This document shows positions 1 through 3,000 of a stretch of DNA of 64,000 nucleotides, one piece after another. Each line of letters opens with the position of its first letter. Position 1 is the first letter of the stretch. The DNA is taken from the NCBI RefSeq assembly GCF_053078305.1, contig NZ_CP166879.1. One strand, 5' to 3'. Position numbers: made by a program.

Positions 1-3000
1 CCACCATTACTGACATGCAGGTGCGCCAGCGTGATGTTGCTGCGCTCGATGCAAAATACTCGAGGGAATTAGCCGATGCGAGAGCTGAAAATGAAACTCT
101 TCGCGCTGACGTTGCCGCTGGTCGTAAGCGCCTGCGTATCAACGCCACCTGTCCCGGCTCCGTGCGTGAAGCCCCCACCACCTCCGGCGTGGATAATGCA
201 ACCGGGCCCCGACTGGCAGACACCGCTGAACGGGATTATTTCATCCTCAGAGAACGGTTGATGACAATGCAGAAGCAGCTGGAAGGGGCGCAGGAATATA
301 TCCGCACTCAGTGCCTGAATTAACAGAGCCAGCTTAATCGCTGGCTTTTTCATATCTGAATTTCACCGCGCACCGCAGCGCACAATAACCACCGAACCTG
401 CCCCTTTGGAATGAGCCTTTGAGGATACCAGTTAGTGCTGGCGAGCCTCGGTGGGCTGGTTTCCTGTGCGGCAAAGGTTCATTTCAAAGAGCAGGTACAC
501 GCTATGAACTATCCGACGATTGTTGACGGTATTGATTTTCGCCAACTGGTAACAGCGGCAGATGGCGAACCAATAACAGACTCTTTTCAGATCGCTAAGG
601 CGTTTGGTAAGCGTCATGCGGACGTATTGAGGGCGCTGAAAAATTGCCATTGCTCTGAAGATTTCCGGAGAGCGCATTTTTGCGTTGCCGAAAAAATCAA
701 TGAGTTAGGGATTTTCGACAAGAAGCAGATTTACTACCGCATGGACTTTAGCGGCTTCGTTATGTTGGTCATGGGATTTAACGGGGCAAAAGCTGATGCC
801 GTTAAAGAAGCCTATATTAATGCCTTTAACTGGATGTCCGCTGAACTCCGTAAGTTCAGTGAAAGTTATGAAGCTGAACGCAACGCTGTAATGCTGGAAT
901 ACATGAAAGAGAAAGATGTTGCCAGTATGTCAGGTCGTTTGCTCAATCGCTGGGGCAGGGTGAAGAAGCCTCAGTTGCTGGCAAGGCTGGACAGGCTGGA
1001 GCAACAGGGACAGATTGCGTTACCCGGATTTGATAAAGGCATTTCAGCCTGACATAACCATGCGCCGTATCGTCGCCGTATTCCCGCATAAACAGAGACC
1101 GCAGCCACCTTATCTGCGTGAGTGTGCGGGGGTAATCAAAAACGATGCACACCGGGTTTTCTCATTTTTCACGAGATGGGAGCGATTTCCCGCGAAGCCG
1201 CCTGTCCGGTGCGGTGGTGGAAGAAACCGGATAAAACAACCTCATTGTACAAATATCGATCAAGTATGGCGCTGCTGTGTGAATTCTGAAAAATCACAGC
1301 GGCCATTGTGCATCAGTTTTTAACAGAGGACGTCAGAAAGTGACATGGCAAAGCTGGACTGGAAAAAGCTGGAGCAGGCATTCCGACGCGAACATGCCGA
1401 AACGGGAATAACATTACTGGACTGGTGCCGGAAGAAAAAGATTAATTACAACACCGCCAGAACCCGTATAAAAATGGGCAAAATCGATCATGAAATTGAT
1501 CATAAAACCGATCATGAAATCGATCATGACATCTCAGATGAAGAACCCAGCAATGACGCGTGTTCCGACGATGAAAAATGCGCAAAAAACTCTGAAAAAA
1601 ACTGCGCAAATTCGGCAGAAACGAAACGGATTCGTGGTTCCCGACTTTTACCTCCTTCAAACGCTTTTTCTCAGCGAAACACCCACGCCGTAAGACACCG
1701 TGGATATGCGAAGTATCTTGAGGCAGATAACCTCATGGATGATGCGTCCGACATGGTGCTGTTCGATGAACTGGTGTTCACCCGGGCCCGCGCACTTTCA
1801 GTAACTAAGGCACTTAAAGGGATGTTCGCCGACCTGGAAAAGGCAACTGACGTGGAAACCCGCGTTGCTCTTTACGACAAAATACTCAAAGCTGAACAGG
1901 CCCTTGACCGGAATATTGCCCGTATCGAGTCAATTGAACGCTCATTGCTGACGCTGGACGTCCTGGCTGAGACAGCACCAAAACTTCGTGCTGACCGGGA
2001 AAGAATCAACGCCGCCAGAGATAAACTCAGAGCGGAAACCGATATTCTGACCAGCCAGCGCCGGGGCGTTGTTACGCCTGTCAGTGACATCGTGTCATCG
2101 CTGCATGAAATGAGTAATTCGGGGAGACTGGATGACATTCCGGAAGAATGAACCGCGATGTGATGAGCCGTCAGAAATGACCGAGGCTGAACAACGTCTG
2201 TTCATTATGACAAAACTGAGCAATCCCTGGTGGCGCCTCAATCATCTCTACAAAATACAGAACGAAAAAGGTGAACTGGTCACCTTCAGAATGCGACCGG
2301 CGCAACGTCAGTTGTTTCGTAACATGCATAATAAAAACATTATCCTGAAAGCGCGCCAGCTGGGATTTTCCACAGCCATTGATATTTATCTTCTCGACCA
2401 GGCATTATTCATTCCGCATCTCAAATGCGGGATCGTCGCTCAGGATAAACAGGCTGCCAGTGAAATTTTCCGCACAAAAATTGCTGTACCGTTTGATCAT
2501 CTCCCTGACTGGCTGAGAGCCTCATTCACCATCGTTGAACGTCGTAGCGGTGCCAGCGGTGGCTATATCCTGTTTGGTCACGGCTCGAGTATTCAGGTGG
2601 CAACCTCATTTCGCTCAGGTACGGTGCAGCGCCTGCATATCTCAGAGCACGGCAAAATTTGCGCGAAATATCCGGCTAAGGCGAAAGAGCTGCGAACCGG
2701 TACGCTTAATGCCGTCTCTGATGAATGCATTATTTTTGATGAATCCACGGCTGAAGGCGTGGGTGGTGATTTTTACGAGATGAGTAACCGTGCACAGGAG
2801 AGCACTGCATCAGGCTTATTGCTGACGGCACAGGATTATAAATTCCATTTTTACGCATGGTGGCAGGATCCTAAATACAGCGCCAGAGTGCCTGAAAGCG
2901 GGCTGAAGCTGTCACGGGAAAAAATGACGTATTTTTCTGCGGTTGAGAAGGCAATGAACATCACGCTTACCGATGAGCAGAAGCAGTGGTACATCAGTAA

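Follow-up and report, generated by a model that had tools for sequence, protein, structure and literature searches.

Near the start of the window (by which we mean the whole stretch of 64,000 nucleotides that was analysed, from contig NZ_CP166879.1 of assembly GCF_053078305.1), four GATC sites start at 1486, 1498, 1510 and 1522, according to the sequence search at exactly 12 bp spacing. An earlier note placed them inside a small terminase gene and considered a Dam-dependent packaging (pac) site, a regulatory site, or a coding repeat in which GATC is incidental. Which of these does the locus carry?

The window contains 205 GATC sites (0.0032 per bp). Four GATC within 40 bp are found in it only once, at 1486-1522. 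Three GATC at 12-bp spacing are likewise found only at this array, and in 0/100 dinucleotide-preserving shuffles, so that the clustering exceeds chance, as the earlier note had supposed. The units of the array are ATCGATCATGAA, ATTGATCATAAA, ACCGATCATGAA and ATCGATCATGAC, and all four differences between the units spare the GATCAT core. In order, the hexamers are CGATCA, TGATCA, CGATCA and CGATCA; the exact TGATCA is present only once, and GATC is present in 4/4. The repeat and the hexamer array within it are described as follows.

1481-1533, plus strand: full 12-bp tandem repeat, 4.4 copies, coding K-IDHE-IDHK-TDHE-IDHD-I (Tandem Repeats Finder; repeat-family search).
1485-1526, no strand assigned: array of four (C/T)GATCA hexamers (1485-1490, 1497-1502, 1509-1514 and 1521-1526), each with a Dam site; proposed TerS recognition element of pac (sequence; family-wide array at the same gene position; 12-bp TGATCA array of the PacA family; invariant core in 3-, 4- and 5-copy variants).

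The array is a duplicated unit with GATC inside it, and thus the phasing by itself is no proof of selection. Among 120 sampled matches of four 12-bp-spaced GATCA across viral contigs, 6 were located in terS-type genes and 114 elsewhere. Such arrays are mostly unrelated coding repeats, and therefore the pattern alone is not diagnostic of terminase genes. Their presence in many unrelated viral genes favours one alternative, namely that the array is an in-frame coding tandem repeat (a VNTR produced by replication slippage) in a tolerant linker, where GATC is incidental and the His/Asp peptide is metal-binding or functionless. In keeping with this, the unit of 12 bp corresponds to 4 codons, and all the copies are in frame.

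The gene that contains the array and the two genes that follow it are listed below.

1345-2151, plus strand: terS, small terminase subunit, 268 aa, of a 933W-like (Sepvirinae) Stx-type prophage (ORF; PHROG 370; annotated relatives).
2132-3838, plus strand: terL, large terminase subunit, 568 aa, with its first 20 nt shared with the end of terS (ORF; PHROG 2).
3838-5982, plus strand: portal protein gene, next in the packaging module (ORF; annotated at identical coordinates in the matching E. coli prophage).

TerS matched PHROG 370 'terminase small subunit' over residues 1-268 (E = 1.4e-123), and the 222 phage records that are at least 90% identical to terS are labelled terS or terminase. The gene is annotated as terS in the 933W-like Stx phages, and its assignment in the earlier note was correct. 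The terL product matched PHROG 2 'terminase large subunit' (E = 4e-53), and terS is followed directly by terL and portal, as expected for PHROG 370 small terminase subunits. No match of TerS was obtained in the profile scans against Pfam and NCBIfam, or in the PDB sequence search. Foldseek comparison of its AlphaFold2 model with the PDB gave coiled-coil noise only (all E > 0.2). The E. coli prophage that matches the first 31 kb of the window has a different host flank and was therefore rejected as the source locus of the window. The record PV189406, which starts inside terS, was considered as a mapped virion end and was rejected; its authors linearised the sequence at the terL start codon.

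According to the AlphaFold2 model, the first part of TerS is divided into two regions.

1345-1482, plus strand: N-terminal three-helix HTH DNA-binding domain, aa 1-46 (AlphaFold2; homology to the PacA N-terminus; partition by helix signature and hexamer).
1483-1737, plus strand: predicted disordered linker, aa 47-131 (AlphaFold2 pLDDT < 50; peptides unrelated between lineages).

The helices of the HTH domain are aa 6-20, 24-30 and 35-41, with pLDDT of 76-89. The predicted recognition helix is aa 35-41 (~1447-1467), inside ..NYNTARTRIKMGK. The array corresponds to gene nt 141-182 of terS, just 3' of the part coding the HTH (aa 1-46), and encodes the peptide K-IDHE-IDHK-TDHE-IDHD, aa 46-61. The segment aa 47-131, which is located between the HTH and a coiled-coil hairpin in the model, is predicted to be disordered, in agreement with the linker in which the earlier note had placed the His/Asp repeat. 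Disorder of this segment also suits the coding repeat.

Repeat copy number was compared among relatives, as had been suggested, and was found to be 3-5 with an invariant core. Whether a variant has 3, 4 or 5 copies, all its units keep GATCAT (42/42 array sequences of the lineage that were compared). The earlier note had pointed to terS homologues that encode the peptide repeat without GATC as the contrary case, and none was found among these arrays. Throughout the lineage, Asp of the D/H repeat is always GAT and His is always CAT. Arrays of 1-2 copies exist in truncated or frameshifted terS genes. The protein search with the 72-residue TerS N-terminus returned truncated or frameshifted proteins only, which gave more copy-number variants and no new lineage. 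Both the range of 3-5 copies and the shorter forms in damaged genes speak for a coding repeat, whereas the variation between units, which always avoids the GATCAT core, speaks against it.

Prophages of the 933W-like type are present in 386 of the 5,426 complete E. coli genomes. The 201-nt query matched 387 complete E. coli records, with no identity below 90%; its coverage fell short of 80% in five of them. Matching places in E. coli genomes numbered 415. Where spans are listed, the band of 90-95% identity corresponds to a 12-bp length difference, which fits 3-5 copies as read from length. In phage records where the terS match ends at aa 55, module exchange at the array was considered and rejected, as an IS629-like insertion sits directly 3' of the three-copy array. 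The terS stop at aa 55 is caused by this insertion, and thus it is no evidence for modularity.

The PHROG 370 terS family was compared using 99 distinct 5' parts. Between gene nt ~105 and 310, these sequences carry 3-8 copies of one hexamer, compared with 0-3 in the rest of each ~3.5 kb locus; as the motifs were picked after seeing the data, the enrichment P-values are optimistic. The array starts recur near nt 130-145, 165, 177 and 189, in steps of ~12 bp. Depending on the lineage the hexamer is GATCAT, TGCGCA, TGCGAA or GTACGC, and an array is present in every lineage. The sister lineages (PhiR12_3-like, Klebsiella prophages and Klebsiella phage Chronis-like) resemble the window in gene architecture, array position and the ~12-bp steps. 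In the PhiR12_3-like lineage, identity to the window is 95-100% over the last two thirds of TerS and over the compared 5' part of terL. The sister arrays, however, are composed of TGCGCA, TGCGAA (TTCGCA) or GTACGCA, none of which contains a Dam site, and the recognition helix differs correspondingly.

Each hexamer is accompanied by its own helix signature. GAIRK[RK]A[KR] is paired with GTACGC (49 sequences), [ST]AKRYIK with TGCGAA (31 sequences), NTARTRIK with GATCAT (14 sequences), and TARRYIK with TGCGCA (6 sequences, among them L151, which resembles the TGCGAA lineage in other respects). There are 0 exceptions among the 99 distinct sequences; as the HTH adjoins the array, this co-variation could partly be simple linkage. 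The C-terminal tail types of TerS reassort among the lineages, and the HTH and the hexamer never part. The residue preceding T-A-R is Asn in all the GATC users (the window lineage, P1, JK004 and the L185 group) and in 0 TGCGCA users.

The sister lineages also allow DNA and peptide to be separated. TGCGCA is found in all three codon phases, GTACGCA is found in two codon phases together with a conserved inverted copy, and TGCGAA occurs as the palindrome TGCGAATTCGCA. The presence of the hexamers in 2-3 frames and on both strands indicates that selection acts on the DNA and not on the peptide in these lineages. In the GATC lineage the four copies are all in one reading frame, so that the frame test is inapplicable to the window. 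The peptides found at the array position in the sister lineages are SAQKNAQ, ANSQKK or GTQVRKN, unrelated to the D/H repeat. A functional peptide repeat would be conserved regardless of codons, and this is not the case in the family. Unrelated peptides at a position where the hexamer array is retained argue against the metal-binding linker with incidental GATC that the earlier note had offered. The linker, predicted to be disordered, apparently tolerates any peptide that the DNA motifs impose.

These features bear directly on the coding repeat as an explanation of the window array. The D/H peptide is not conserved, whereas the sister lineages always keep a hexamer array at the position; their motifs cross frames and strands, and the hexamer type tracks the recognition helix. 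Moreover, (xxDH)n and a TGATCA array are found in genes of the PacA family, where GATC hexamers are experimentally defined pac elements. We regard a mere coding repeat as unlikely on these grounds.

The relation to PacA of phage P1 was obtained from both directions. The TerS N-terminus matched PHROG 1711 (E = 2.6e-5), and P1 PacA matched PHROG 370 (E = 1.9e-4), reciprocally in the first ~100 residues. TerS aa 1-61, which cover the HTH and the DH repeat, matched the PacA-family protein L185 (BLASTP, E = 2e-10). By these sequence matches, the N-terminal module of TerS is judged to be homologous to P1 PacA. The remaining ~170 residues, the core of TerS, are not PacA-like. The window TerL has no pairwise BLASTP similarity to PacB, and the two have only PHROG 2, a very broad family, in common.

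The L185-type PacA sub-lineage contains six TGATCA at exactly 12-bp spacing (gene nt 154-214, coding GDHNHDHSSDHASDHQNDH), and two further TGATCA-type hexamers are located ~150 nt downstream of this array. L185, L241, L260 and L285, which are metagenomic sequences from ~90 kb P1-like viral contigs, resemble the window in the 12-bp TGATCA array and in the (xxDH)n that follows an HTH with the NTAR helix. They differ from the window in having six copies instead of four and the two extra GATC hexamers downstream, and beyond this module their protein belongs to PacA (PHROG 1711, E = 2e-155) and not to PHROG 370. Cronobacter phage JK004 served as a positive control. In its pacA gene, GATC is present at the P1 gene positions 202, 214 and 229, and 325, 337 and 348, and the encoded peptide is changed. 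These positions flank the annotated P1 cleavage sites.

P1 pac, a stretch of 161 bp within pacA, has seven hexamers with a Dam site, and it has been manipulated by synonymous recoding (PMC10028697). Both P1 pac and the window array are found within the small-terminase gene, where the part coding the HTH immediately precedes them. The P1 left cluster is at gene nt 195-229, compared with nt 141-182 for the window array and 154-214 for the L185-type PacA. In P1 and the window alike, there are multiple xGATCA hexamers that are mostly read GAT-CAx (Asp-His/Gln), and P1 and, according to the literature, the 933W-type phage are both headful packagers and generalized transducers. P1, however, has two clusters (HEX4 and HEX3, TGATCA/G), which enclose the mapped cuts and an IHF site. 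The spacing is irregular in P1 (7, 12, 15 in one cluster and 12, 11 in the other), whereas the four sites of the window form a single cluster with a spacing of exactly 12 bp. In the window scan a second GATC cluster was absent, the next GATC after 1526 being at 2431. The IHF consensus WATCAANNNNTTR with at most one mismatch gave 0 matches in 1400-1700; the consensus is weak, so this absence is not decisive. With a single GATC cluster and no IHF consensus match, the P1 architecture is thus only half reproduced. The analogy to P1 pac drawn in the earlier note is strengthened by the PacA homology and the 12-bp array of the PacA sub-lineage, beyond what its author could know, and fails in the bipartite layout. 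Dam dependence is proven for P1 pac, whereas for the window array it is a prediction from the analogy.

Elements of the TGCGCA type are present on both sides of the window array.

1475-1480, no strand assigned: degenerate TGCGCA-type element TGGGCA, within AAAAATGGGCAAA, adjoining the left side of the array (repeat-family and pattern search).
1574-1610, no strand assigned: second 12-bp repeat with two TGCGCA (1579-1584 and 1603-1608) in an A-rich context (Tandem Repeats Finder; repeat-family and pattern search).

The TGGGCA element is at gene nt 131, where terS lineage B has CTGCGCAAA. The two TGCGCA elements are located 50-80 bp downstream of the GATC array, at the place where the second cluster of P1 would be. 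The repeat at 1574-1610 is common to the sister lineage that has TGCGCA as its main array, and lineages C and D of terS have 1-2 copies of their distal motif at gene nt 225-305. A bipartite site may have its distal half in this repeat, which could also be a relic.

DNA identity between the window and the TGCGCA sister lineage is 93-95% at gene nt -59 to 60, 60-65% at nt 61-120, 37-47% across the array and 72-75% at nt 241-300. It is mostly 95-100% again from nt ~361-600, depending on the locus, and remains so through terL. A divergent cassette of HTH and array (gene nt ~60-340) is flanked by near-identical DNA on both sides, and the boundaries within the terS family are, according to this comparison, mosaic.

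The TGCGCA-type elements suggest a second alternative. TerS would recognise these elements (1475, 1579 and 1603), and the GATC array would be a Dam/SeqA-sensitive spacer insert that times or limits the use of pac; just after replication, while the DNA is hemimethylated, it would be sequestered or would bend in another way. The TGCGCA-like copies kept on both sides of the array and the 72-75% identity to the TGCGCA lineage at nt 241-300 are consistent with such a spacer. At a spacing of 12 bp, the four GATC face roughly the same side of the helix, the layout preferred by SeqA on hemimethylated DNA. However, the window helix is TARTRIK, compared with TARRYIK in the TGCGCA lineages, and the Asn-Thr-Ala-Arg signature is common to the window TerS and all the GATC-using PacA proteins. 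The GATC units occupy the proximal-array positions of every other lineage, and 0 intact proximal copies of TGCGCA are left. A spacer between TGCGCA sites seems quite unlikely to us in view of these differences. E. coli oriC and P1 oriR, which are controlled by SeqA and Dam, also have a dense GATC cluster whose methylation shifts after replication (five Dam sites within 55 bp are annotated in P1 oriR). These two, to which SeqA and DnaA bind, are origins of replication, whereas the window array co-varies with the terminase HTH and has no signs of an origin.

The regulatory site mentioned at the outset would act in cis on transcription or translation of terS and terL, in a Dam-dependent or TerS-autoregulatory manner, with no role in packaging initiation. 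Clustered GATC sites serve methylation-dependent regulation elsewhere, and the packaging operon begins with terS, in which the array is located 140 nt from the start. The scans, however, gave no promoter-like or terminator-like site near the array and no Rfam family at it, and the homologous element serves in packaging in P1, where its cleavage positions have been mapped. The co-variation with the HTH would be unexplained unless TerS is the regulator, and a regulator TerS would largely merge this explanation with that of a pac site. A purely regulatory array is very improbable in our judgement.

A pac site recognised by TerS in or next to terS is known in P22 and Sf6, and the pacL and pacR of SPP1 provide multiple TerS contacts around the cut (PMC9611059). 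The proposal for the window resembles these systems in that the pac signal is embedded in terS or adjoins it. P22 pac differs as a single asymmetric 22-bp sequence with no phased hexamer array, and the TerS proteins of P22, Sf6 and SPP1 had no detectable relation to the window TerS in the PDB sequence search. Binding of TerS to pac is hard to show in vitro even in model phages (PMC9611059). The 933W TerL serves as a headful reference (PMC6029569), and the PhiR12_3 TerL is annotated as 'T4-like headful'. The DNA of 933W appears to be terminally redundant, and 933W is a generalized transducer (PMC3752737); a pac site is therefore expected. In the literature searched, no pac or virion-end mapping was found for 933W-like phages. 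Related Stx phages encode an MT-A70 adenine methylase, and an expressed 'dam' gene has been described in them (PMC3342100).

The phased GATC hexamers are probably the TerS-recognition part of the pac site of this 933W-type headful-packaging prophage. As the best reading, the candidate pac would be a P1-type module joined to a terminase otherwise unlike that of P1. TerS would assemble into a ring via the coiled-coil core, with the N-terminal HTH domains displayed, and adjacent HTH domains would bind successive (C/T)GATCA hexamers, one per 12 bp (about one helical turn). The binding would mark the phage DNA for the TerS-TerL complex, TerL would make the first cut nearby, and headful packaging would proceed from that point. 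Full, hemi- or no methylation of the hexamers probably modulates binding or cutting in a P1-like manner, and an adenine methylase is also encoded by these phages. By analogy with P1, the array may be Dam-dependent.

For the enterobacterial TerS proteins (PHROG 370 and the P1 PacA family), we tentatively suggest a more general and rather speculative scheme. The packaging specificity might be set by an exchangeable cassette, which consists of the HTH recognition helix and its own 12-bp-phased hexamer array in the linker-coding DNA behind it. The pairings would be NTAR.. with xGATCA, TARRY with TGCGCA, [ST]AKRY with TGCGAA and GAIRK with GTACGC. The 933W-type Stx phages would possess the Dam-site version, and adenine methylation of host or phage origin could then control their packaging and transduction, as it does in P1.

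Shiga toxin genes are spread by the 933W-like phages, which are also efficient in generalized transduction. The candidate of ~130 bp (1470-1610) gives a handle for mapping and manipulating the packaging of Stx phages. It would help to predict how far, and in which direction, these prophages transfer DNA by lateral or generalized transduction, and it could be the basis for pac-plasmids or for packaging-defective lysogens obtained by synonymous recoding as in P1. Dam has a known effect on 933W lysogeny, and if methylation gates the array, Dam would be linked to virion production as well. With its pairing of helix and hexamer, the family also offers a natural set of data on DNA recognition by TerS.

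The GATC sites of the array in the small terminase gene terS start at 1486, 1498, 1510 and 1522, which confirms the exact 12-bp spacing reported in the earlier note. The repeat units are ATCGATCATGAA, ATTGATCATAAA, ACCGATCATGAA and ATCGATCATGAC; the GATCAT core is identical across them, and every difference between units falls elsewhere. Among the 205 GATC sites of the window, the array is the sole instance of four within 40 bp and the only place with three at 12-bp spacing (0 of 100 shuffles). As the array is a tandem repeat, its phasing already follows from unit duplication, and the real question is whether selection maintains the GATC content. 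The densest non-repeat cluster, in the host part (62675-62720, five GATC in 100 bp, irregularly spaced), looks incidental.

Features of the window
15-323, +, truncated spanin gene at the window start
76-261, +, out-of-frame ORF embedded in the spanin gene, with the lipoprotein-like signal MKLFALTLPLVVSAC at its start
504-1049, +, Rha-like transcriptional regulator / anti-repressor gene directly upstream of terS (PHROG 518, E=5e-86)
1345-2151, +, terS, ORF of 268 aa containing the array
1475 (region 1470-1482), TGGGCA, a degenerate TGCGCA-type copy immediately left of the array
1481-1533, 12-bp tandem repeat, 4.4 copies (Tandem Repeats Finder)
1574-1610, second 12-bp repeat AAAA(A/C)TGCGCAAA, two copies
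1579 and 1603, TGCGCA elements right of the array
2132-3838, +, terL, ORF 3' of terS
3838-5982, +, portal ORF after terL
40720-40813, -, MicF sRNA gene
48801-49109, -, REP/naRNA4 element of 113 bp (Rfam RF02564), three tandem copies

Over its whole length, the terS ORF matches PHROG 370 ('terminase small subunit', E=1.4e-123). It is at least 90% identical to terS in 222 deposited phages, nearly all of them Stx-converting and 933W-like (Sepvirinae). Of the 5,426 complete genomes of E. coli, 386 contain the region. Spanin genes and the Rha-like regulator gene are located 5' of terS, and the spanin gene with its embedded ORF is the usual Rz/Rz1 arrangement. A Rha-like gene likewise lies upstream of terS in Klebsiella phage Chronis; the gene at this place in phage P13374 is an unclassified 'regulatory protein'. 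The MicF gene and the REP/naRNA4 copies show that the prophage does not extend into the right part of the window, which is E. coli chromosome. The first 31 kb match the wrbA/ymdF-side prophage of strain 2013C-3033, whose host flank is a different one.

No match to TerS was found in Pfam, NCBIfam or a PDB sequence search. In the AlphaFold2 prediction (24-sequence alignment), an N-terminal three-helix domain (aa 6-20, 24-30 and 35-41, pLDDT 76-89) is followed by a disordered stretch (aa 47-131), a long helical hairpin (aa 129-239) and a C-terminal helix. The repeat thus encodes the beginning of a flexible linker, in agreement with the linker location assumed previously.

The suggested comparison of copy number among related prophages was performed on 42 array sequences. 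Four copies are present in 40, three in one and five in one; GATCAT is unbroken in every unit, and no polymorphism other than a synonymous T/C outside this hexamer was seen. One- or two-copy forms were found only in a partial protein (306-nt contig) and a frameshifted gene. All matching complete E. coli records are at least 90% identical to the 201-nt query, and 382 of 387 cover at least 80% of it; 17 records fall between 90 and 95%, and those with listed spans are 12-bp length variants. In LC727869.1 an IS629-like (IS3 family) element, starting with TGAACCGCCCCGGG, extends from ~3178 onward directly 3' of a three-copy array, so that terS is cut short at aa 55. This truncation point is common to seven Stx2a prophage records (also LC727850, LC727853, LC727860, LC727865, LC727866 and LC727842); the insertion was seen in LC727869.1, the one inspected.

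Arrays of other motifs occupy the same place in related terS genes. We collected 99 distinct 5' parts of the family from two viral-contig scans and phage records, and all 99 contain a motif array at gene nt ~105-310, with motif starts clustered near 130-145, 165, 177 and 189. The sequence of the third helix and the motif partition without exception.

Array motifs of the terS lineages and the third helix paired with each
933W-like lineage: GATCAT, 3, 4 or 5 copies; NTARTRIK (14 distinct sequences)
PhiR12_3-like E. coli prophages: TGCGCA; TARRYIK (6)
Klebsiella prophages: TGCGAA, often as the palindrome TGCGAATTCGCA; [ST]AKRYIK (31)
Chronis-like lineage: GTACGCA; GAIRK[RK]A[KR], paired with GTACGC (49)

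Each locus has 4-8 copies of its lineage motif in ~190 nt versus 0-3 across the other ~3.5 kb, although the motifs were chosen after inspection and the enrichment P-values are therefore optimistic. One of the two main rival readings is a neutral or peptide-level coding repeat. In the three non-GATC lineages, however, the motif is read in two or three codon phases (CTG CGC AAA / AGT GCG CAG / TGC GCA AAA; GGT ACG CAG GTA CGC AAA), and inverted copies are also present. Selection on the peptide cannot produce this pattern, and we regard such a repeat as unlikely. The peptides encoded by the sister arrays (SAQKNAQ, ANSQKK and GTQVRKN) are dictated by the DNA motif. In the TGCGCA lineage, many of the proteins in the database (P0010-P0012, P0015, P0019, P0026) are frameshifted within the array, probably at A-runs, which suggests a hotspot for slippage or for sequencing/assembly errors in prophages.

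The co-variation of helix and motif is partly linkage, because the helix-turn-helix (HTH) adjoins the array. DNA identity to the TGCGCA sister lineage starts at 93-95% (59 nt upstream of the gene to nt 60), drops to 60-65% at nt 61-120 (helices 2-3) and to 37-47% at nt 121-240 (array) and, from a point at nt ~361-600 that varies with the locus, is mostly 95-100% through terL. Thus, the recognition helix and the array form a single sharply bounded divergent cassette. Locus L151 shows the pairing independently: it has TARRYIK and seven TGCGCA, though elsewhere it resembles the TGCGAA lineage. Despite the linkage, the bounded cassette and L151 point to functional coupling of HTH and array. Three types of C-terminal tail (last 40-60 residues, alignment A3: ..SQRRGVVTPVSDIVSSLHEMSNSGRLDDIPEE, ..DGDKDNAIVVHNSLPIPGR and ..RRDAGIDDGNGERDLNDFYSD..), presumably the TerL-binding ends, occur in free combination with the N-terminal HTH/array types.

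P1 pac spans 161 bp, contains seven TGATCA/G Dam-site hexamers and has been disabled via synonymous recoding (PMC10028697). Its annotated cleavage sites (pacA gene nt ~276-285) are located between the hexamers at 195, 202, 214, 229 and those at 325, 337, 348. PacA of Cronobacter phage JK004, with 57% identity to the P1 protein in the N-terminal ~120 residues, served as a control: GATC is retained at the P1 positions 202, 214, 229 / 325, 337, 348, and the encoded peptide is NDQKRDQKKRDQ in place of IDHSNDQHAGDH. The comparative signature can thus be recovered at a proven pac site. TerS and PacA match each other's PHROG families over the first ~100 residues (E=2.6e-5 and 1.9e-4). A viral-contig scan for four GATCA at 12-bp spacing gave 120 stretches, six of them in terS-type genes: two 933W-like and four of the PacA family (PHROG 1711, E=2e-155), two of the latter, those of known size, on ~90 kb P1-like contigs. 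The PacA-family four contain six TGATCA at exact 12-bp spacing (gene nt 154-214), encoding GDHNHDHSSDHASDHQNDH right behind the HTH, and two further GATC hexamers ~150 nt downstream. By BLASTP, the window TerS is 34% identical to one of these proteins over aa 1-61 (HTH and DH repeat, E=2e-10). The Asn before T-A-R of the recognition helix is present in all GATC-using lineages and absent in TGCGCA users. At the sequence level, the window array therefore corresponds in kind to the left hexamer cluster in pac sites of the P1 family. The proposed analogy with P1 pac holds for the homologous HTH module and the hexamer array. Several features do not fit P1: the array is not followed by another GATC cluster, as the next GATC lies at 2431, and no match to the IHF consensus, which is a weak one, was found near the array. 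The TerS core is also unrelated to PacA, and TerL has only the very broad PHROG 2 in common with PacB, with no pairwise similarity.

The repeat motif of 1574-1610 makes up the entire array in the PhiR12_3-like sister lineage. In other lineages, too, the lineage's own motif recurs once or twice distally (gene nt 225-305); thus a bipartite layout may be general, with a distal half of the 'wrong' type in the 933W-like lineage. The TGCGCA-type elements on both sides of the array (1475, 1579 and 1603) would also fit a TerS that binds TGCGCA-like elements, with GATC as a modulating insert; we consider this quite improbable. As the best-supported and reasonably probable reading, we favour 1485-1526 as the array through which TerS recognises the prophage pac site; the full site likely spans 1475-1610.

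Related Stx phages carry an MT-A70 adenine methylase gene (Pfam E=6e-22), and a VT2 phage methylase has reportedly been demonstrated to be GATC-specific. In P13374, genes for a restriction endonuclease and an adenine-specific DNA methylase (14603-17022, -) adjoin cI, and the MT-A70 gene is near int; this phage thus carries at least two DNA methylases. In phage phi24B, a gene named 'dam' is expressed (PMC3342100). Phage 933W is an efficient transducer of markers, its DNA is apparently terminally redundant, and the authors of that work proposed renaming its terminase a 'pacase' (PMC3752737); 933W TerL is a headful reference in a terminase-based classification (PMC6029569). Our literature search found no mapped pac site or virion end for 933W-like phages, and TerS-DNA recognition is still poorly understood (PMC9611059). 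From the P1 analogy and the phage methylases, Dam sensitivity of the candidate site is plausible. The candidate pac site would be a P1-type GATC module joined to a terminase otherwise unlike that of P1.
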